From Escherichia coli (GTDB lineage: Bacteria; Pseudomonadota; Gammaproteobacteria; Enterobacterales; Enterobacteriaceae), in NCBI RefSeq assembly GCF_965641715.1, contig NZ_OZ282453.1: DNA of 64,000 nt. One strand, given 5' to 3'. The translations under genes and the position numbers were made by a program. The notes below the pieces were generated by a model that saw only the letters and a program-made list of their open reading frames with translations, was not told where the DNA came from and made no database searches. This document shows positions 1 through 40,206 of the stretch, piece by piece. Position 1 is the first letter of the stretch. Every line of letters starts with the position of its first letter.

Positions 1-5535
<5,535 letters not shown>

Positions 5536-7185
5536 GTGAACTGGCGCAGAATCGTCTGGCTATTGGCGTTGGTTACTCTGCCAACGCTTGCGGAGGAGAC
5601 GCCGTTACAACTGGCGCTGCGCGGTGCGCAGCACGATCAACTGTATCAGCTGTCGTCATCAGGCGTGACCAAAGTCTCAGCATTACCTGACACGCTCACC
5701 ACGCCGTTAGGGAGTTTATGGAAACTGTATGTTTACGCCTGGCTGGAGGATACCCATCAACCGGAGCAGCCCTACCAGTGTCGCGGAAACTCCCCGGAAG
5801 AGGTTTATTGTTGTCAGGCTGGGGAGAGCATAACGCGCGATACCGCGCTGGTACGTTCCTGTGGGCTCTATTTTGCGCCGCAGCGGTTGCATATTGGGGC
5901 AGATGTGTGGGGGCAATACTGGCAACAGCGTCAGGCACCTGCGTGGTTAGCGTCTCTTTCTACGCTGAAGCCAGAAACCTCGGTAACGGTTAAATCGCTG
6001 CTTGATTCATTAGCGACGTTACCTGCGCAAAACAAAGCTCAGGAAGTCTTACTGGATGTGGTGCTGGACGAGGCGAAAATCGGTGTCGCATCTATGCTCG
6101 GTAGTCGGGTACGGGTGAAAACCTGGTGCTGGTTTGCCGATGATAAACAGGAAATCCGTCAAGGTGGTTTTGCTGGCTGGTTAACCGATGGTACACCGCT
6201 GTGGGTGACTGGCAGTGGCACCAGCAAAACGGTACTGACCCGTTATGCGACGGTGCTTAATCGGGTTTTGCCAGTGCCGACGCAAGTTGCCAGTGGGCAA
6301 TGTGTAGAGGTGGAGCTATTTGCGCGCTATCCGCTGAAGAAAATCACAGCGGAGAAGAGTACGACGGCAGTAAAACCCGGCGTACTTAATGGGCGCTATC
6401 GTGTGACGTTTGCCAATGGTAACCACATTACGTTTGTCAGCCACGGTGAGACGACCTTACTGAGCGAAAAGGGCAAACTGAAATTGCAGTCGCATCTCGA
6501 TCGTGAAGAGTATGTTGCCAGAGTTCTGGATCGCGAGGCGAAAAGTACGCCACCTGAGGCAGCGAAAGCCATGACCGTGGCGATACGCACTTTTTTACAG
6601 CAAAACGCCAATCGGGAAGGCGATTGCCTGACCATCCCTGACAGCAGCGCCACGCAGCGTGTTTCGGCTTCGCCAGCGACCACGGGGGCGCGAACGATGA
6701 CCGCCTGGACGCAGGATCTCATCTATGCGGGCGATCCGGTTCATTATCACGGCAGTCGCGCTACCGAAGGGACGCTTTCCTGGCAGCAAGCCACGGCCCA
6801 GGCGGGGCAGGGGGAGCGTTACGACCAGATACTCGCGTTTGCTTATCCCGACAACAGCCTTAGCCGCTGGGGAGCGCCACGCTCAACCTGTCAGTTATTA
6901 CCCAAAGCGAAAGCCTGGCTGGCGAAAAAAATGCCGCAGTGGCGGCATATATTACAAGGCGAGACGGGGTACAACGAACCAGACGTGTTTGCGGTCTGTC
7001 GTTTAGTCTCAGGTTTCCCCTATACCGATCGGCAGCAGAAACGGCTGTTTATTCGTAACTTCTTTACGCTTCAGGATCGGCTGGATTTAACCCATGAGTA
7101 TCTGCACCTGGCCTTTGATGGTTATCCTACCGGGCTTGATGAGAACTATATCGAAACGCTGACCCGACAATTATTAATGGACTAA
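5536..7185 (+). CDS. yfaQ: DUF2300-family secreted protein YfaQ
   Basis: 549-aa ORF starting at GTG immediately after the yfaS stop (TAA-GTG); N-terminal signal peptide (LLALVTLPTLA/EE). Confidence 0.85.
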   Translation: MNWRRIVWLLALVTLPTLAEETPLQLALRGAQHDQLYQLSSSGVTKVSALPDTLTTPLGSLWKLYVYAWLEDTHQPEQPYQCRGNSPEEVYCCQAGESITRDTALVRSCGLYFAPQRLHIGADVWGQYWQQRQAPAWLASLSTLKPETSVTVKSLLDSLATLPAQNKAQEVLLDVVLDEAKIGVASMLGSRVRVKTWCWFADDKQEIRQGGFAGWLTDGTPLWVTGSGTSKTVLTRYATVLNRVLPVPTQVASGQCVEVELFARYPLKKITAEKSTTAVKPGVLNGRYRVTFANGNHITFVSHGETTLLSEKGKLKLQSHLDREEYVARVLDREAKSTPPEAAKAMTVAIRTFLQQNANREGDCLTIPDSSATQRVSASPATTGARTMTAWTQDLIYAGDPVHYHGSRATEGTLSWQQATAQAGQGERYDQILAFAYPDNSLSRWGAPRSTCQLLPKAKAWLAKKMPQWRHILQGETGYNEPDVFAVCRLVSGFPYTDRQQKRLFIRNFFTLQDRLDLTHEYLHLAFDGYPTGLDENYIETLTRQLLMD

Positions 7186-7189
7186 TGCT

Positions 7190-7966
7190 ATGCGAAAGAT
7201 TTTTCTTCCGTTGTTACTGGTGGCGCTTTCGCCTGTCGCTCACAGTGAAGGTGTGCAGGAAGTCGAGATTGACGCACCGCTCTCAGGCTGGCATCCGGCA
7301 GAGGGCGAAGATGCCAGTTTTTCACAATCGATCAATTACCCGGCGTCGTCCGTCAACATGGCAGATGATCAAAATATCTCAGCGCAGATCCACGGCAAAA
7401 TAAAGAATTATGCTGCGGCGGGTAAAGTTCAGCAGGGCCGGCTGGTGGTCAACGGTGCCAGTATGCCGCAGAGAGTTGAATCCGATGGTTCATTTGCACG
7501 CCCTTATATTTTCACTGAAGGCAGCAACAGCGTGCAGGTCATCAGCCCGGATGGGCAAAGCCGACAAAAAATGCAGTTTTACTCAACGCCGGGTACAGGA
7601 ACGATTCGTGCACGTTTACGGCTGGTTCTCTCGTGGGATACGGACAATACCGATCTCGATCTCCATGTTGTCACGCCCGATGGAGAACACGCCTGGTACG
7701 GTAACACCGTGCTGAAAAACAGTGGTGCACTGGATATGGATGTCACGACGGGGTATGGACCCGAGATTTTCGCCATGCCAGCGCCAGTTCACGGGCGCTA
7801 TCAGGTGTATATCAACTACTATGGTGGGCGCAGCGAAACGGAATTAACCACCGCCCAACTGACGCTGATCACCGATGAAGGATCGGTCAATGAGAAACAG
7901 GAAACATTTATTGTACCGATGCGTAATGCTGGCGAGCTGACGCTGGTGAAAAGTTTTGACTGGTGA
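7190..7966 (+). CDS. yfaP: DUF2135-family secreted protein YfaP
   Basis: 258-aa ORF, ATG 4 nt after the yfaQ stop; signal peptide (LLLVALSPVAHS/EG). Confidence 0.85.
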   Translation: MRKIFLPLLLVALSPVAHSEGVQEVEIDAPLSGWHPAEGEDASFSQSINYPASSVNMADDQNISAQIHGKIKNYAAAGKVQQGRLVVNGASMPQRVESDGSFARPYIFTEGSNSVQVISPDGQSRQKMQFYSTPGTGTIRARLRLVLSWDTDNTDLDLHVVTPDGEHAWYGNTVLKNSGALDMDVTTGYGPEIFAMPAPVHGRYQVYINYYGGRSETELTTAQLTLITDEGSVNEKQETFIVPMRNAGELTLVKSFDW

Positions 7967-8020
7967 TCCATCCCTTCACACAACCTGGCTCTTTCTTTTT
8001 TCAGATAAGACTGCTGGGCG

Positions 8021-8082
8021 ATCTGCCGACGCCAGGATATAACCATTAACAAGCGTCGGCAGATTGGTCATTTCTTTTTTTT
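8021..8082 (+). terminator. Candidate intrinsic terminator of the yfa operon
   Basis: Perfect 12-bp inverted repeat ATCTGCCGACGC / GCGTCGGCAGAT (8021-8032 and 8053-8064) followed by a T-rich run (8071-8082), about 55 bp after the yfaP stop. Confidence 0.45.
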
Positions 8083-8240
8083 CGTACTGAGAACTGTCCA
8101 TTTACTCCGGCTTTCCTGGTTAAGGCAATGGTTTCTAAGCGATACGCATTATTGCAATGGTGACAGAACATTGCGGTAACACGCTTTTACCGCTACCTTA
8201 ACCACACTCCATCGGTCACCTGAGGCGGAGCTTCGCCCCT

Positions 8241-11090
8241 TTGAAATACCTTGCTTCTTTTCGTACAACCCTGAAAGCCTCGCGCTACATGTTCAGAGCA
8301 TTGGCGTTAGTGCTCTGGCTGTTGATTGCTTTTTCATCCGTTTTTTACATCGTTAATGCGTTACATCAGCGAGAATCGGAAATTCGTCAGGAATTTAATC
8401 TGAGTTCCGATCAGGCTCAGCGCTTTATTCAACGCACCTCTGATGTGATGAAAGAGCTGAAGTACATCGCTGAAAATCGCTTATCGGCAGAAAACGGTGT
8501 GCTTTCCCCGCGTGGACGAGAAACGCAGGCGGATGTGCCTGCGTTTGAACCGCTGTTTGCCGACTCCGATTGTTCCGCAATGAGTAACACCTGGCGAGGT
8601 TCTCTGGAGTCATTGGCGTGGTTTATGCGCTACTGGCGCGATAATTTTTCTGCGGCTTACGATCTCAACCGGGTATTTTTAATCGGCAGCGATAACCTCT
8701 GCATGGCCAATTTCGGTCTGCGTGATATGCCAGTGGAACGCGATACCGCGTTGAAAGCGTTGCATGAACGCATCAATAAATATCGAAATGCACCACAAGA
8801 TGATAGCGGCAGTAACCTCTACTGGATCAGCGAAGGTCCGCGCCCTGGCGTCGGGTATTTTTACGCGTTGACGCCAGTTTATCTGGCGAACAGGTTGCAG
8901 GCGCTTTTGGGTGTCGAGCAGACCATCCGGATGGAGAATTTTTTCTTACCGGGTACGTTGCCGATGGGGGTTACCATTCTTGATGAAAATGGTCATACCC
9001 TGATTTCGCTTACCGGACCAGAAAGCAAAATTAAGGGCGATCCTCGCTGGATGCAGGAACGCTCCTGGTTTGGCTATACGGAAGGTTTCCGGGAGCTGGT
9101 GCTGAAGAAAAATCTGCCTCCCTCATCGCTAAGCATCGTTTATTCGGTGCCGGTTGATAAGGTGCTGGAACGCATTCGCATGTTGATCCTTAACGCAATT
9201 TTGCTGAATGTGCTTGCTGGAGCTGCATTGTTTACTCTCGCGCGGATGTACGAGCGGCGTATTTTCATTCCGGCGGAAAGCGATGCCCTGCGACTGGAAG
9301 AACATGAGCAGTTTAACCGCAAGATTGTCGCCTCCGCGCCAGTGGGTATCTGTATTTTGCGTACCGCAGATGGCGTCAATATTTTAAGTAACGAACTGGC
9401 GCATACCTATCTCAATATGCTTACGCATGAGGACCGCCAACGGCTGACACAAATTATCTGTGGGCAGCAGGTCAATTTTGTTGATGTCCTGACCAGCAAT
9501 AATACCAATCTGCAAATCAGCTTCGTCCATTCGCGCTATCGTAATGAAAACGTGGCCATTTGTGTGCTGGTGGATGTTTCTTCGCGCGTGAAGATGGAAG
9601 AGTCGTTGCAGGAGATGGCACAAGCAGCGGAACAGGCGAGCCAGTCAAAATCGATGTTCCTTGCCACCGTCAGTCATGAGCTGCGAACGCCGCTGTATGG
9701 CATTATCGGTAACCTGGATCTTTTGCAAACCAAAGAGTTACCGAAAGGCGTCGATCGTCTGGTGACGGCAATGAACAACTCTTCCAGCCTGTTGTTGAAA
9801 ATTATCAGCGATATTCTCGATTTCTCGAAGATTGAATCGGAACAGTTGAAGATCGAACCGCGTGAGTTTTCACCGCGTGAAGTGATGAACCACATCACCG
9901 CCAACTATTTACCGCTGGTGGTACGCAAGCAGTTAGGCTTGTACTGCTTTATTGAACCGGATGTGCCAGTGGCTTTAAATGGCGACCCGATGCGTTTACA
10001 GCAGGTCATCTCCAACCTGTTGAGTAACGCCATAAAATTCACCGATACCGGCTGTATAGTTTTGCATGTCCGCGCTGATGGCGATTATCTCTCTATCCGT
10101 GTTCGCGATACCGGCGTGGGGATTCCGGCGAAAGAAGTGGTGCGCTTGTTTGATCCCTTCTTCCAGGTCGGAACGGGCGTACAGCGAAACTTCCAGGGGA
10201 CCGGTCTGGGTCTGGCGATTTGTGAAAAACTGATCAGCATGATGGACGGCGACATCTCGGTAGATTCAGAACCGGGAATGGGCAGCCAGTTTACCGTGCG
10301 TATTCCGTTGTACGGCGCTCAGTACCCGCAGAAAAAAGGCGTGGAAGGGTTGAGTGGTAAACGCTGCTGGCTGGCGGTCCGCAATGCGTCGCTCTGTCAG
10401 TTCCTGGAAACCAGTTTGCAGCGCAGCGGCATCGTCGTTACAACATACGAAGGGCAGGAACCGACTCCCGAAGATGTGTTAATCACTGACGAGGTAGTGA
10501 GTAAAAAATGGCAGGGCAGAGCGGTAGTGACCTTCTGTCGTCGCCATATTGGTATTCCGCTGGAGAAAGCGCCAGGGGAGTGGGTACACAGTGTGGCTGC
10601 TCCGCATGAGCTACCGGCATTGTTGGCGCGTATTTATTTGATCGAGATGGAGAGCGACGATCCTGCTAACGCTCTGCCGTCGACGGACAAAGCGGTCAGC
10701 GATAATGACGATATGATGATTCTGGTCGTGGATGATCATCCGATTAACCGACGTCTGCTGGCAGATCAGTTGGGATCGTTGGGCTATCAATGTAAAACCG
10801 CGAATGATGGCGTCGATGCGCTTAATGTACTTAGCAAGAATCATATTGATATCGTGCTTAGCGACGTCAACATGCCAAATATGGATGGTTACCGCTTGAC
10901 GCAACGCATTCGTCAGTTGGGACTGACGTTGCCGGTAATTGGAGTAACGGCTAATGCGTTGGCTGAAGAGAAGCAGCGGTGTCTGGAGTCCGGTATGGAC
11001 AGCTGCCTGTCGAAGCCGGTAACGCTGGATGTGATAAAACAGACGCTGACGGTATATGCCGAGAGGGTCAGGAAATCGCGGGATTCGTAG
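8241..11090 (+). CDS. rcsC: Hybrid sensor histidine kinase RcsC
   Basis: 949-aa ORF, TTG start, MKYLASFRTTLKASRYMFRAL...; HisKA/HATPase and C-terminal receiver domain motifs; length matches RcsC. Confidence 0.95.
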   Translation: MKYLASFRTTLKASRYMFRALALVLWLLIAFSSVFYIVNALHQRESEIRQEFNLSSDQAQRFIQRTSDVMKELKYIAENRLSAENGVLSPRGRETQADVPAFEPLFADSDCSAMSNTWRGSLESLAWFMRYWRDNFSAAYDLNRVFLIGSDNLCMANFGLRDMPVERDTALKALHERINKYRNAPQDDSGSNLYWISEGPRPGVGYFYALTPVYLANRLQALLGVEQTIRMENFFLPGTLPMGVTILDENGHTLISLTGPESKIKGDPRWMQERSWFGYTEGFRELVLKKNLPPSSLSIVYSVPVDKVLERIRMLILNAILLNVLAGAALFTLARMYERRIFIPAESDALRLEEHEQFNRKIVASAPVGICILRTADGVNILSNELAHTYLNMLTHEDRQRLTQIICGQQVNFVDVLTSNNTNLQISFVHSRYRNENVAICVLVDVSSRVKMEESLQEMAQAAEQASQSKSMFLATVSHELRTPLYGIIGNLDLLQTKELPKGVDRLVTAMNNSSSLLLKIISDILDFSKIESEQLKIEPREFSPREVMNHITANYLPLVVRKQLGLYCFIEPDVPVALNGDPMRLQQVISNLLSNAIKFTDTGCIVLHVRADGDYLSIRVRDTGVGIPAKEVVRLFDPFFQVGTGVQRNFQGTGLGLAICEKLISMMDGDISVDSEPGMGSQFTVRIPLYGAQYPQKKGVEGLSGKRCWLAVRNASLCQFLETSLQRSGIVVTTYEGQEPTPEDVLITDEVVSKKWQGRAVVTFCRRHIGIPLEKAPGEWVHSVAAPHELPALLARIYLIEMESDDPANALPSTDKAVSDNDDMMILVVDDHPINRRLLADQLGSLGYQCKTANDGVDALNVLSKNHIDIVLSDVNMPNMDGYRLTQRIRQLGLTLPVIGVTANALAEEKQRCLESGMDSCLSKPVTLDVIKQTLTVYAERVRKSRDS

Positions 11091-15352: not shown

Positions 15353-16489
<1,137 letters not shown>

Positions 16490-16507
16490 TCTCGATTGAT
16501 ATCGAAC

Positions 16508-17729: not shown

Positions 17730-18794
17730 ATGAAAAACGCCACATGCTTAACTGACGATCAACGCTGGCAATCTGTCTTAGCCCGCGACCCGAATGCCGA
17801 CGGCGAATTCGTTTTCGCCGTGCGCACCACAGGCATCTTTTGCCGTCCGTCTTGCCGCGCCAGACATGCCTTGCGGGAAAATGTCTCCTTCTACGCAAAT
17901 GCCAGCGAGGCACTCGCCGCCGGATTTCGCCCCTGCAAACGCTGCCAACCTGATAAAGCCAATGCCCAGCAACATCGGTTGGATAAAATCACCCACGCGT
18001 GTCGACTGCTGGAACAGGAAACGCCTGTAACGCTGGAAGCCTTAGCCGACCAGGTGGCGATGAGTCCGTTCCATCTGCATCGTTTATTTAAAGCCACCAC
18101 CGGAATGACGCCAAAAGCCTGGCAACAGGCCTGGCGCGCTCGTCGCTTGCGCGCATCGCTGGCGAAAGGCGAGAGCGTCACCCAGGCGATTCTGAACGCT
18201 GGATTTCCCGACGGCAGTAGTTATTACCGCAAAGCCGACGAAACGCTGGGAATGACGGCTAAACAGTTTCGTCACGGTGGCGAAAACCTGGCTGTGCGTT
18301 ATGCGCTGGCTGATTGTGAGTTGGGCCGTTGCCTGGTGGCAGAAAGCGAGCGGGGGATTTGCGCGATTCTGCTGGGCGACGATGACGGGATGTTGATTAA
18401 CGAACTCCGTCAAATGTTTCCTGCCGCCGACAATGCGCCTGCTGACCTGATGTTTCAGCAACATGTGTGTGAAGTGATTGCCAGCCTCAATCAGCGCGAT
18501 ACGCCGCTGATGTTACCGCTGGATATTCGGGGAACCGCTTTTCAACAACAAGTCTGGCAGGCGCTACGCACTATTCCTTGTGGTGAAACGGTGAGTTACC
18601 AGCAACTGGCGAACGCGATTGGCAAACCTAAAGCCGTTCGCGCGGTAGCCAGTGCCTGCGCCGCCAATAGATTAGCTATTATTATCCCTTGTCATCGGGT
18701 AGTACGCGGTGATGGCGCACTTTCTGGTTACCGCTGGGGCGTGTCGCGCAAAGCGCACTTGCTGCGCCGCGAAGCTGAACATGAGGAGAGGTAA
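17730..18794 (+). CDS. ada: Bifunctional transcriptional activator / O6-methylguanine-DNA methyltransferase Ada
   Basis: 354-aa ORF; N-terminal four-Cys zinc site (CRPSCRAR...RPCKRC), AraC-type HTH, C-terminal PCHRV active-site motif. Confidence 0.95.
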   Translation: MKNATCLTDDQRWQSVLARDPNADGEFVFAVRTTGIFCRPSCRARHALRENVSFYANASEALAAGFRPCKRCQPDKANAQQHRLDKITHACRLLEQETPVTLEALADQVAMSPFHLHRLFKATTGMTPKAWQQAWRARRLRASLAKGESVTQAILNAGFPDGSSYYRKADETLGMTAKQFRHGGENLAVRYALADCELGRCLVAESERGICAILLGDDDGMLINELRQMFPAADNAPADLMFQQHVCEVIASLNQRDTPLMLPLDIRGTAFQQQVWQALRTIPCGETVSYQQLANAIGKPKAVRAVASACAANRLAIIIPCHRVVRGDGALSGYRWGVSRKAHLLRREAEHEER

Positions 18795-19444
18795 TGTTGG
18801 ATCTGTTTGCTGATGCTGAACCGTGGCAAGAATCGCTGGCTCCCGGCGCGGTGATTTTGCGCCGTTTTGCTTTTTACTCTGCGGAACAACTGATGCTCGA
18901 TATCAGTGACGTTGCCAGCCAGTCGCCATTTCGCCAGATGGTCACCCCCGGCGGATATACCATGTCGGTAGCGATGACCAACTGCGGGCATCTGGGCTGG
19001 ACAACCAATCGGCAAGGTTATCTCTATTCGCCCATTGATCCGCAAACAAATAAACCGTGGCCCGCCATGCCGCAGAGTTTTAATGATTTATGTCATCACG
19101 CGGCCACGGCGGCGGGTTATCCAGATTTCCAGCCTGACGCTTGCCTAATCAACCGCTACGCCCCTGGTGCGAAACTGTCGCTGCATCAGGATAAAGACGA
19201 ACCGGAGCTGCGTGCACCGATTGTTTCTGTTTCTCTGGGCTTACCCGCGATTTTTCAATTTGGCGGCCTGAAACGAAATGATCCGCTAAAACGTTTGTTG
19301 TTGGAACATGGCGATGTGGTGGTGTGGGGCGGTGAGTCGCGGCTGTTTTATCACGGCATTCAACCGCTCAAAGCGGGGTTTCATCCACTCACCGCCGACT
19401 GCCGCTACAACCTGACATTCCGTCAGGCAGGTAAAAAAGAATAA
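18794..19444 (+). CDS. alkB: Alpha-ketoglutarate/Fe(II)-dependent DNA dioxygenase AlkB
   Basis: 216-aa ORF, MLDLFADAEPWQE...; ATG overlaps the ada stop; H-x-D...H iron-binding residues (LHQDKDE...YHGI). Confidence 0.95.
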   Translation: MLDLFADAEPWQESLAPGAVILRRFAFYSAEQLMLDISDVASQSPFRQMVTPGGYTMSVAMTNCGHLGWTTNRQGYLYSPIDPQTNKPWPAMPQSFNDLCHHAATAAGYPDFQPDACLINRYAPGAKLSLHQDKDEPELRAPIVSVSLGLPAIFQFGGLKRNDPLKRLLLEHGDVVVWGGESRLFYHGIQPLKAGFHPLTADCRYNLTFRQAGKKE

Positions 19445-23028: not shown

Positions 23029-23400
23029 GATGTGCCACATCCGGCAGGGTATGCCGGATGTGGCGTATGCTGATAAGACGCGTCAGCGTCGCATCAGGCA
23101 ACCGGCTCGGACGTTGGATGTCGGATGCGGCGTAACCGCCTTATCCGACCTGGCGGTTGCAGCACTTCACAGCGGTGTAGGCCTGATAAGACGCGCCAGC
23201 GTCGCATCAGGCAACCGGCTCGGGCGTTAGATGTCGGATGCGGCGTAACCGCCTTATCCGACCTGGCGGTTGCAGCACTTCACAACGGTGTAGGCCTGAT
23301 AAGACGCGCCAGCGTCGCATCAGGCAACCGGCCAGGGCGTTAGATGTCGGATGCGGCGTAACCGCTTTATCCAACCTACGGGGTGCCGCACTTCACAGCA
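23029..23400. repeat. REP hairpin plus tandem array of about three 113-bp BIME-like units
   Basis: Perfect 13-bp inverted repeat GCCACATCCGGCA/TGCCGGATGTGGC at 23033-23063. Unit TGATAAGACGCGCCAGCGTCGCATCAGGCAACCGGCTCGGGCGTTAGATGTCGGATGCGGCGTAACCGCCTTATCCGACCTGGCGGTTGCAGCACTTCACAACGGTGTAGGCC repeats at 23071, 23184 and 23297. Confidence 0.85.
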
Positions 23401-23402
23401 GT

Positions 23403-23891
23403 TTAGCGAACTACCGCGTTCTCAATCTTCTCTTCCGCCTTCCAGATGCGGTATTTCACATCCACATTGTCTGGCGTATACACCACGATCGGCAGCTTGC
23501 TGTTGTAACGCAGCATTCCGGTATCGCCGAGATATGCAGTGACAAATTTCTTCTCTTTCTTGCCATCCGGGCAGGCCATCATCGTGGAAACCGGCGAGCT
23601 AACTTTATCAAAGACATAATAATCATAGCCCCAGCCTTCCAGCGTTTTGCTTTCCAGCTTCCCACCGAGACGATGCAAATTGCAATCGACTTCCAGCGTC
23701 TGACCGATTAACAGTTCTACTTTCAGGGTAGATTCATCTTCTTGCGGGGTTAACTGAATCACCTGACGCTTCATGCCTTTTTCAGCTTGTGGATAAGGCG
23801 CGATTTTTTCCAGTGGCTGGACGCTCTCTGCCGCCCAGGCGGAAGTGGTGGCGAAAGCGGCAAACAATACTGCAGGTAGAATGGTCTTCAT
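23403..23891 (-). CDS. eco: Ecotin (periplasmic serine protease inhibitor)
   Basis: 162-aa [50 protein letters not shown]...; sequence recognised as ecotin. Confidence 0.95.
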
Positions 23892-37614: not shown

Positions 37615-40206
37615 ATGCATCAATCTGGTTCTGTTTCTCTTTGTCGTTCCGCAATATCTGTTCTGGTGGCTACAGCGTTATATTCACCCATAGCATTGGC
37701 ATCAACAGTTGAGTATGGTGAGACAGTTGATGGTGTTGTCCTGGAAAAAGATATCCAGCTGGTTTATGGGACCGCCAATAATACGAAAATCAATCCTGGC
37801 GGAGAACAGCATATTAAAGAATTTGGTATAAGTAGTAATACTGAAATTAACGGCGGGTATCAGTACATTGAAATGAATGGCACCGCAGAATACTCCGTAT
37901 TAAATGATGGTTATCAAATTGTTCAAATGGGTGGCGCGGCAAACCAGACTACCCTCAATAATGGTGTGCTACAGGTTTATGGCGCAGCGAATGATCCCAC
38001 GATTAAAGGCGGGCGCTTAATCGTTGAAAAAGATGGGATTACCGTCCTTGCCGCTATCGAAAAGGGAGGATTACTGGAGGTTAAAGAGGGGGGATTAGCG
38101 ATTGCGGTAGATCAGAAAGCAGGCGGTGCTATTAAAGCAACCACGCGGGTCATGGAGGTATTCGGAACAAACCGTCTCGGTCAGTTCGATATCAAGAATG
38201 GAATTGCAAACAATATGCTGTTGGAAAACGGCGGAAGTTTGCGAGTTGAAGAAAATGACTTCGCTTATAATACTACTGTAGATAGTGGCGGCTTACTGGA
38301 GGTTATGGATGGCGGGACTGCAACTGGCGTTGATAAAAAAGCAGGCGGAAAATTAATTGTCTCAACGAATGCGCTGGAAGTGAGTGGTACAAACAGTAAA
38401 GGCCAATTTAGTATAAAAGATGGTGTGTCAAAAAATTATGAACTGGATGATGGTTCCGGGCTTATTGTTATGGAGGACACGCAGGCCATTGACACTATCC
38501 TCGATGAGCATGCCACTATGCAATCGCTGGGAAAGGATACTGGTACGAGAGTGCAGGCAAATGCGGTATATGATCTCGGTCGATCAGATCAGAATGGAAG
38601 TATAACGTATTCCTCTAAAGCCATCTCTGAAAATATGGTTATCAACAATGGCCGCGCTAACGTCTGGGCTGGCACAATGGTTAACGTTTCAGTCAGAGGG
38701 AATGATGGCATTCTTGAGGTCATGAAGCCGCAAATAAATTATGCACCCGCAATGTTGGTGGGTAAGGTAGTGGTTTCTGAGGGCGCTTCTTTTAGAACGC
38801 ATGGTGCCGTGGATACCAGCAAAGCGGACGTTTCGCTCGAAAATAGCGTATGGACCATCATTGCCGATATCACTACGACGAACCAAAACACCCTCCTCAA
38901 CTTAGCCAACCTTGCGATGTCTGACGCAAATGTGATTATGATGGATGAGCCAGTGACTCGTTCATCTGTGACGGCAAGTGCGGAAAATTTCATTACGTTG
39001 ACCACCAATACCCTGTCGGGAAACGGCAATTTTTATATGCGTACCGATATGGCTAATCATCAGAGCGATCAGCTCAACGTCACCGGTCAGGCAACAGGTG
39101 ATTTCAAAATATTCGTGACGGACACCGGTGCCAGCCCGGCAGCAGGAGATAGCCTTACACTGGTAACAACGGGCGGCGGTGATGCTGCATTTACGTTGGG
39201 CAATGCCGGAGGCGTTGTTGATATCGGTACGTATGAATATACCTTGCTGGATAATGGTAACCATAGCTGGAGTCTGGCAGAGAATCGCGCGCAAATTACC
39301 CCTTCAACCACTGATGTGCTAAATATGGCGGCAGCACAACCGCTGGTATTTGATGCAGAACTGGACACCGTGCGTGAGCGTCTTGGTAGCGTAAAAGGCG
39401 TTAGTTACGATACGGCGATGTGGAGTTCGGCAATTAACACCCGCAACAACGTGACCACTGATGCGGGAGCTGGTTTTGAGCAAACATTGACGGGCCTGAC
39501 GCTCGGTATCGATAGCCGTTTCTCCCGTGAAGAAAGCAGTACAATTCGCGGCTTGTTCTTTGGTTACTCTCATTCTGATATTGGTTTTGATCGCGGCGGA
39601 AAAGGTAATATCGATAGCTATACCCTGGGGGCTTATGCCGGTTGGGAGCATCAGAACGGTGCCTATGTTGATGGGGTGGTGAAAGTTGACCGTTTTGCCA
39701 ACACCATCCATGGCAAGATGAGTAATGGGGCAACAGCGTTTGGCGATTACAATAGTAACGGCGCGGGTGCTCATGTTGAGAGCGGGTTCCGTTGGGTTGA
39801 CGGATTGTGGAGTGTTAGACCCTATCTGGCCTTTACCGGCTTTACCACAGATGGTCAGGACTACACGTTATCAAACGGCATGCGCGCGGACGTGGGAAAT
39901 ACCCGGATATTACGCGCTGAAGCGGGAACGGCGGTAAGCTATCACATGGACCTGCAAAACGGTACGACGCTGGAACCCTGGCTGAAAGCCGCCGTGCGTC
40001 AGGAATACGCCGATTCTAACCAGGTGAAAGTTAATGACGATGGCAAATTTAATAATGATGTGGCTGGAACCAGTGGCGTTTATCAGGCTGGGATAAGGTC
40101 ATCGTTTACCCCGACGTTAAGCGGTCATTTGTCAGTCAGCTATGGCAATGGCGCAGGGGTAGAATCGCAGTGGAATACTCAGGCGGGTGTGGTCTGGACG
40201 TTCTGA
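37615..40206 (+). CDS. yejO: Autotransporter adhesin-like protein YejO, uninterrupted
   Basis: 863-aa ORF; signal peptide (SVLVATALYSPIALA/STVE); repetitive Gly/Asn-rich passenger region; C-terminal beta-barrel translocator ending ...QAGVVWTF (terminal aromatic). Confidence 0.85.
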   Translation: MHQSGSVSLCRSAISVLVATALYSPIALASTVEYGETVDGVVLEKDIQLVYGTANNTKINPGGEQHIKEFGISSNTEINGGYQYIEMNGTAEYSVLNDGYQIVQMGGAANQTTLNNGVLQVYGAANDPTIKGGRLIVEKDGITVLAAIEKGGLLEVKEGGLAIAVDQKAGGAIKATTRVMEVFGTNRLGQFDIKNGIANNMLLENGGSLRVEENDFAYNTTVDSGGLLEVMDGGTATGVDKKAGGKLIVSTNALEVSGTNSKGQFSIKDGVSKNYELDDGSGLIVMEDTQAIDTILDEHATMQSLGKDTGTRVQANAVYDLGRSDQNGSITYSSKAISENMVINNGRANVWAGTMVNVSVRGNDGILEVMKPQINYAPAMLVGKVVVSEGASFRTHGAVDTSKADVSLENSVWTIIADITTTNQNTLLNLANLAMSDANVIMMDEPVTRSSVTASAENFITLTTNTLSGNGNFYMRTDMANHQSDQLNVTGQATGDFKIFVTDTGASPAAGDSLTLVTTGGGDAAFTLGNAGGVVDIGTYEYTLLDNGNHSWSLAENRAQITPSTTDVLNMAAAQPLVFDAELDTVRERLGSVKGVSYDTAMWSSAINTRNNVTTDAGAGFEQTLTGLTLGIDSRFSREESSTIRGLFFGYSHSDIGFDRGGKGNIDSYTLGAYAGWEHQNGAYVDGVVKVDRFANTIHGKMSNGATAFGDYNSNGAGAHVESGFRWVDGLWSVRPYLAFTGFTTDGQDYTLSNGMRADVGNTRILRAEAGTAVSYHMDLQNGTTLEPWLKAAVRQEYADSNQVKVNDDGKFNNDVAGTSGVYQAGIRSSFTPTLSGHLSVSYGNGAGVESQWNTQAGVVWTF

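Follow-up and report, generated by a model that had tools for sequence, protein, structure and literature searches.

An ato-less yfaP-rcsC junction in Escherichia coli carries a diverged atoS remnant and very probably represents an old, widespread deletion allele

The window analysed here is a stretch of 64,000 nucleotides of Escherichia coli DNA. According to its list of open reading frames, the plus strand carries yfaS (916-5535), yfaQ (5536-7185), yfaP (7190-7966) and rcsC (8241-11090). The last gene of the yfa (alpha-2-macroglobulin) cluster, yfaP, encodes a DUF2135 protein of 258 aa that is 98.8% identical to K-12 YfaP. Matching genomes annotate the same ORF as yfaP, and its stop codon occupies 7964-7966. 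The co-oriented rcsC gene encodes a hybrid sensor kinase of 949 aa, which is 99.8% identical to K-12 RcsC over 949 aa and matches the NCBIfam equivalog NF008099 (RcsC) end to end with 1841 bits (cut-off 920). Its TTG start at 8241 is the annotated start of K-12 b2218. The two genes are separated by a spacer of 274 bp (7967-8240), which an earlier sequence-only reading of this DNA had put at about 275 bp. Within the same cluster, yfaS is an intact ORF of 1,539 codons in the window and a pseudogene in the K-12 annotation.

In strain MG1655 the order of genes is rcsC(-), atoS, atoC, atoD, atoA, atoE, atoB(+), yfaP(-), with 7,490 bp from the yfaP stop to the rcsC start. The sequence-only reading had placed atoS-atoC-atoDAEB between yfaP and rcsC on the K-12 map, and the MG1655 annotation agrees. 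It had further claimed that ato is missing at this junction; tblastn searches with the six K-12 Ato proteins likewise found no ato genes in the 64-kb window, the only matches being to paralogous kinase and receiver domains inside rcsC.

On the yfaP side of the spacer, homology to K-12 stops 1 nt past the stop codon in pairwise alignment. What follows is a fast-evolving junction filler (7967-7990), for which no homology to the K-12 ato region was detected. In local alignment to K-12 rcsC-ato-yfaP, both the filler (24-27 nt, 7967-7993) and the segment 8066-8117 score no better than shuffles, and 7967-7993 is only 63% identical to E. whittamii. Beyond the filler, on the minus strand at approximately 7991-8071, blastn and BLASTP identified a pseudogene fragment that derives from the 5' part of the atoS coding sequence, roughly codons 23-49 in K-12. 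Positions 7992-8059 match K-12 atoS codons 27-49 with 78% DNA identity over 69 bp (blastn E = 1e-9 pairwise and E = 2e-4 against 28 Gb), and the translation shares 15/27 identities with AtoS residues 23-49 (BLASTP E = 1e-7). This relic is collinear with the K-12 rcsC-atoS intergenic region and lies in atoS orientation. Its coding integrity is gone, as the first ~22 atoS codons are unrecognisable, everything beyond about codon 50 is missing, and stops are found in other alleles. The relic is single-copy in E. coli genomes (median 1 place). Identity over the relic segment divides these genomes into a class at ≥95% (relic, n=1,541) and a class at 60-80% (intact atoS, n=3,880), with no E. coli genome falling between the two.

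Toward rcsC the affinities of the spacer change again. The distal rcsC upstream region (8118-8164, plus strand) is homologous to the K-12 rcsC-atoS intergenic region and only ~65% identical to it; this diverged haplotype is nearly invariant among ato-less alleles. The proximal upstream region and leader (8165-8240, plus strand, 76 nt) is near-identical to K-12, is common to ato-plus and ato-less haplotypes, and is 96% identical to E. whittamii. Neither flanking direct repeats nor element ends, as a mobile-element scar would have, were found at the borders. The earlier suggestion that ato remnants might persist in the spacer was borne out by the diverged atoS 5' relic; the target-site scars proposed alongside it were not, the spacer having no direct repeats of the target-site type.

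A hairpin with perfect 12-bp arms, extendable to 14+3 bp, was located by inverted-repeat search and folding at 8015-8070 on the plus strand. The arms at 8021-8032 (ATCTGCCGACGC) and 8053-8064 (GCGTCGGCAGAT) are 12 nt each, 100% complementary, and 20 nt apart. By chance, a perfect 12-nt repeat with a loop of at most 40 nt is expected ~7e-4 times per 274 bp (274 x 41 x 4^-12). As plus-strand RNA, a 76-nt segment folds at -29.7 kcal/mol, with z = -4.6 versus shuffles. The extended stem (14 bp + 3 bp) ends at 8070 and U3CU8 stands immediately 3' of it, corresponding to a T-run at 8071-8082 (TTTCTTTTTTTT, plus strand), a candidate terminator tail for yfaP transcripts. The perfect 12-bp inverted repeat plus T-run that had been read at 8021-8082 was exact. 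Both lie inside the atoS relic, and the 20-nt loop corresponds to codons for L-T-I-G-Y-I-V. When the alignment was read directly, the K-12 counterpart of the arms was not self-complementary, with 5/12 positions able to pair.

Comparison of alleles gave a mixed picture for this hairpin. The arms are invariant in the four E. coli alleles examined. The T-run differs by allele and is interrupted or degraded outside the window, being TTATTTTT in O157 and O103, TTGTTGTT in GF43, and TCATTGTG in E. whittamii. In E. whittamii the stem carries three changes and folds at -20.4 kcal/mol (z -1.0). Two of these changes were initially considered compensatory, but this was rejected, as each of the three disrupts a pair in the fold computed from the alignment; 0/24 pairs had a compensatory change. 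No Rfam match was obtained in 7800-8400 at E <= 10, and a consensus terminator scan did not call the hairpin and T-run, because the loop is 20 nt. In E. coli BS-04 (L025, 2987-3185) the yfaP-rcsC spacer is rearranged to 199 bp, with the hairpin loop kept, the arms altered, and a T8 run 3 nt past the stem. This spacer was considered as a third haplotype and set aside, since it is unique among 5,426 genomes and is either a singleton or an assembly oddity.

The hairpin, its loop, and 26 nt upstream together form a block of 83 nt (7994-8076) that is conserved between E. coli and E. whittamii above neutral expectation, with 79/83 positions identical (95.2%). As yardsticks for the same pair of species, neighbouring coding sequence is 88-93% identical, fourfold sites 61-73%, and the rcsC-rcsB intergenic region 61%; relic sub-blocks flanking the core are 63-75% identical. 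The core has three or four differences where ~25 are expected (binomial P ~1e-8 to 1e-10). No Rfam family and no ORF accounts for this conservation, which, judged from the alignments, points to constraint on the core or possibly to a short, more recent exchange. Metagenomes were also searched for diverged copies of the relic core (GATATAACCATTAACAAG); of 33 matches, only two came from the junction, each E. coli-like with 99% identity, and the others were due to chance.

A contiguous junction, counted where at least 80% of window positions 7000-9200 was covered in one piece (98.9-99.6% identity), was found in 1,539/5,426 complete E. coli genomes, including O157:H7, O104:H4 and O103. The remaining E. 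coli genomes match 7000-9200 as two pieces, broken where ato sits. At least 80% of the K-12 ato locus is present in 3,899 complete E. coli genomes, and 1,494 contain no ato DNA. Because the 1,539 genomes with the junction and the 3,899 with ato add up to more than 5,426, at least about a dozen must contain both. Such genomes are in keeping with the published presence of atoSC-atoDAEB in LEE-negative STEC, where the LAA pathogenicity island carries these genes (PMC5539235). Among 178 beef-plant isolates, the prevalence of atoA was 98% in phylogroup A, 11% in B1, 100% in B2, 100% in C, 67% in D, and 0% in E (PMC9602453, Table 2). Three Shigella reference strains, S. dysenteriae 1617, S. flexneri 2a 301 and S. 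boydii Sb227, are also listed without AtoS/AtoC (PMC9496106, Table 1). The ato-less junction is a common and already documented accessory-locus polymorphism of E. coli and is not specific to this strain. The sequence-only reading had called it a known variable junction, in line with the 28% of complete E. coli genomes that share it and with the published prevalence of atoA by phylogroup (PMC9602453).

The junction alone finds matches of 99.6-100% among the 5,426 complete E. coli genomes, while over the 25 kb of window positions 1-25000 the best of them reaches only 97.8%; the window is mosaic, and none of these genomes is a close relative. Several other differences were observed in it. The ada/alkB segment (18001-19000) is 87-88% identical to K-12 and ompC (15501-16500) 90-94%, compared with 98-99% elsewhere, and from these identities both segments look like divergent alleles introduced by recombination. 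Positions 23070-23406 align to the region between eco and mqo in K-12 in several registers, offset by ~113 bp, a sign of a tandem repeat array whose copy number differs from that in K-12. The IS5K element that splits yejO in K-12 (2288919-2290113) is absent at 37678-37681, where the alignment is continuous across the site. Among O157:H7 genomes, only the first 216 nt of 7000-9200 match in strain AC-3 (NZ_CP169544.1), where the annotated features are yfaQ and apbE, which suggests deletion of yfaP, rcsC, rcsB, rcsD and ompC; in strain AC-5 (L022, 1-686) the annotation has yfaQ as a pseudogene, its frame broken by an internal stop.

A YfaP search of species-representative genomes yielded four loci that bear on the history of ato. 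E. whittamii shares both the junction and the relic. Between its flanking genes and those of the window, 27-39% of fourfold-degenerate sites differ, the same as between K-12 and E. whittamii. A relic common to both species, together with species-level divergence of the flanks, implies that the haplotype is approximately at least as old as the species separation, or that there was an ancient exchange. Escherichia sp. MOD1-EC7003 carries another deletion, in which K-12-like atoS codons 1-90, the atoB 3' end, and REP elements are kept. E. albertii proteins in the database include truncated AtoS N-terminal fragments fused to unrelated sequence. Within E. coli, strain PCP06171 (L026, 2501-3667) has an IS1A that adjoins truncated copies of atoS (its first 414 nt) and yfaQ; this IS1A-associated deletion runs from atoS through yfaP into yfaQ, and atoC to yfaP are gone. 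As these deletions differ from one another, ato has been lost repeatedly, and there are at least three further independent ato deletions in Escherichia.

We consider it very probable that the window carries an ato-null haplotype of the rcsC-yfaP interval, an old and widespread deletion allele of E. coli and its relatives. The ancestor would have had atoS-atoC-atoDAEB at this site, as in K-12. A deletion of ~7.2 kb, spanning from about atoS codon 50 to the base after the yfaP stop, would have taken out the rest of atoS, the genes up to and including atoB, and the bidirectional terminator shared by atoB and yfaP. The site would have been left with a short stretch of filler, a decayed remnant of atoS (5' end and promoter side), and an intact rcsC upstream region. 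The event would have put yfaP and rcsC side by side and co-directional, without the original terminator. The relic match on which this rests is short (69 bp), and the 64 kb in view are a part of the genome, so that ato may be present elsewhere. The 22% divergence of the relic was also considered as the import of another functional atoS allele. This was rejected, since the relic differs from IGYIVETEGRSAVLSEKEKKLS, a segment of AtoS that does not vary among the fragments from Salmonella, Klebsiella and Citrobacter; deviation at residues that are invariant across enterobacterial AtoS indicates decay and not import.

Two other histories of the site have to be weighed against a deletion. The ato-less junction could be an ancestral empty site, with K-12-type strains having acquired ato as an inserted island. 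Salmonella is not known to have ato or yfa at this position, which would suit an empty site, as would the break in K-12 homology exactly 1 nt beyond the yfaP stop codon and the mobility of ato in some strains by way of the LAA island (PMC5539235). However, the atoS fragment in the spacer sits where atoS would be expected and in the matching orientation, which means that an atoS gene was once at the site and that the ato-less state arose by deletion. The borders are also free of direct repeats and element ends, and other Escherichia lineages have differing partial ato deletions at the same site. Given the relic, an empty site is already largely refuted, and we regard it as extremely improbable. 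Alternatively, ato could have been lost very early, near the base of Escherichia, and re-acquired later by most E. coli through homologous recombination in the rcsC and yfaP flanks, instead of persisting without a break as a polymorphism. Three features of the relic would suit this: its 22% divergence from atoS, against 1-2% overall and 3-6% at fourfold sites between the flanks and K-12; its presence in E. whittamii as well; and the 63-75% identity of its unconstrained sub-blocks between the two species, approximately the neutral rate. Yet the K-12-like atoS fragments in E. albertii and MOD1-EC7003 indicate that intact ato was also distributed across the genus, and no donor was found. Raised flank divergence was looked for as a mark of an old linked haplotype and gave no signal, the window flanks being 98-99% identical to K-12 up to the junction on both sides. 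Such identity is expected if recombination homogenised the flanks, and ordinary recombination of this kind fits the pattern equally well. Early loss followed by re-acquisition is an unlikely, though not a negligible, history.

The hairpin raises its own alternatives. In K-12 the converging atoB and yfaP genes are separated by a canonical bidirectional terminator (ACACCCGATA...TATCGGGTGTTTTT / AAAACACCCGATA...TATCGGGTGTTTTT), and this terminator is missing from the window. Following the deletion, the hairpin and T-run within the relic would take over from it. On this structural model, that the hairpin and T-run end yfa transcripts and shield rcsC from read-through is a proposition we hold to be evenly poised. 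The yfa terminator proposed in the sequence-only reading is plausible, and the stable stem with the U-tract next to it in the window allele favours it; the 20-nt loop, the silent scan, and a T-run that is not conserved count against it. These same features, apart from the stem, would be natural if decay of the pseudogene had produced the hairpin and T-run as a by-product with no function, and yfa transcripts were ended otherwise, for example by Rho, as would the pairs broken by all three E. whittamii stem changes and the existence of BS-04 with its rearranged, shorter spacer. Against a by-product stand the ~10 directed changes needed to turn K-12-like atoS into a perfect 12-bp repeat, the unchanged arms in 4/4 E. 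coli alleles examined, an 83-nt core that is 95% conserved between species when neutral sites are at 61-73%, and the departure of the canonical terminator with the deletion. A by-product has a considerable chance of being the right account, if somewhat short of an even one.

The relic could also be read as a gene. A minus-strand ORF of 41 codons occupies 7976-8101 (MDSSQYEKKEMTNLPTLVNGYILASADRPAVLSEKRKSQVV); strain ET350 has it annotated as a hypothetical protein, WP_000378476.1. A GGAG stands 5 nt upstream of its ATG and a hypothetical protein is listed in some RefSeq genomes, as a genuine small-protein gene might predict. However, the ORF is open because the window allele has an uninterrupted T8 run. 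In the O157:H7 and O103 alleles, members of the commonest relic identity class (1,180/1,541 genomes at 95-99%), codon 9 is TAA, and the E. whittamii sequence also contains stops, so that the frame is not conserved. By BLASTP the only similarity of the ORF is to the AtoS relic fragment, a transmembrane-flanking piece of AtoS without its context. We judge the ORF to be spurious, an annotation artefact of the relic, and give a genuine small-protein gene scarcely any credence.

Upstream of rcsC, two segments are complementary to each other, GGTTAAGG at 8118-8125 and CCTTAACC at 8195-8202. The conservation of 8118-8240, including this pair, across both haplotypes and both species fits a control region for rcsC as far as alignments can tell. 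A consensus scan for sigma-70 promoters (-35/-10, 16-18 nt spacing) returned 0 sites in 7800-8400 on either strand, and no usable mapped rcsC transcription start was found in the searchable literature. Given the conservation of 8165-8240 with K-12 and E. whittamii, a non-consensus rcsC promoter in the spacer is possible. The earlier proposal of an rcsC promoter at this place is plausible, given the conservation of 8118-8240 with K-12, but lacks a called sigma-70 consensus. An 11-codon upstream ORF ahead of rcsC (8129-8164; ATG GTT TCT AAG CGA TAC GCA TTA TTG CAA TGG TGA) was also observed. It is frameshifted in E. whittamii and probably without meaning.

Taking the deletion together with the conserved core, a broader scenario can be put forward tentatively. 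After the deletion, the relic might have been reshaped into a hairpin element (7994-8076) that is under purifying selection in E. coli and E. whittamii and acts in cis on yfa and rcsC expression, whether by terminating transcription, by insulating or in another way, and the ato polymorphism might be as old as the species split. If it is true that the relic controls yfa read-through into rcsC, this would bear on the sensor kinase of the envelope-stress phosphorelay.

From the gene content of the window we infer that the strain would lack both the two-component system AtoSC and the enzymes and transporter encoded by atoDAEB, unless ato is present elsewhere in the genome. By K-12 genetics, loss of ato means no use of acetoacetate, butyrate or valerate by the AtoDAEB route, with the same proviso. 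The most likely consequence for the strain is that AtoDAEB catabolism of these three substrates and AtoSC signalling are both absent. As a marker, ato follows phylogroup (A, B2, C versus B1, E) and possibly niche (PMC9602453). For annotation, the "hypothetical protein" placed in the spacer of some RefSeq genomes is better read as an atoS remnant. Relative to published ato variation, the added value of the present analysis lies in the atoS relic, the age of the allele, the recurrent loss, the loss of the native terminator, and the conserved relic core.

Compared with K-12 MG1655 rcsC-atoSC-atoDAEB-yfaP (b2218-b2225), the window is alike in the flanking genes and in the rcsC-proximal 76 nt upstream. 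It is without ~7.2 kb that in K-12 comprise atoS past about codon 50, atoC, atoD, atoA, atoE, atoB and the atoB/yfaP bidirectional terminator. This leaves yfaP and rcsC next to each other and co-directional in the window, whereas the K-12 pair is parted by the opposing ato cluster. The hairpin and T-run resemble Rho-independent terminators in having a GC-rich perfect stem, a U-tract right after the extended stem, and a position just downstream of the last gene of an operon. They differ in the loop, which is usually 3-8 nt in such terminators and is 20 nt here, in a U-tract that varies between alleles, and in showing no covariation.

The other ato deletions, in MOD1-EC7003, E. albertii and PCP06171, have likewise lost ato function between rcsC and yfaP, yet they have other breakpoints than the window and K-12-like remnants. 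The LAA island copy consists of the same six genes as the K-12 locus but lies away from rcsC-yfaP, on a mobile island that occupies a tRNA site (PMC5539235), and with it strains that have the ato-less junction can have ato elsewhere. The ato-less O157:H7, O103, O104:H4 and other (mostly B1 and E) strains share the architecture and relic of the window and are 96-100% identical within E. coli. The window allele differs from those of O157:H7 and O103 in its uninterrupted T8 run and hence an open 41-codon ORF, their TTATTTTT placing a stop in that ORF. Outside E. coli, the ato-less junction of E. whittamii has the same architecture and relic as the window, with the relic part 87% identical.
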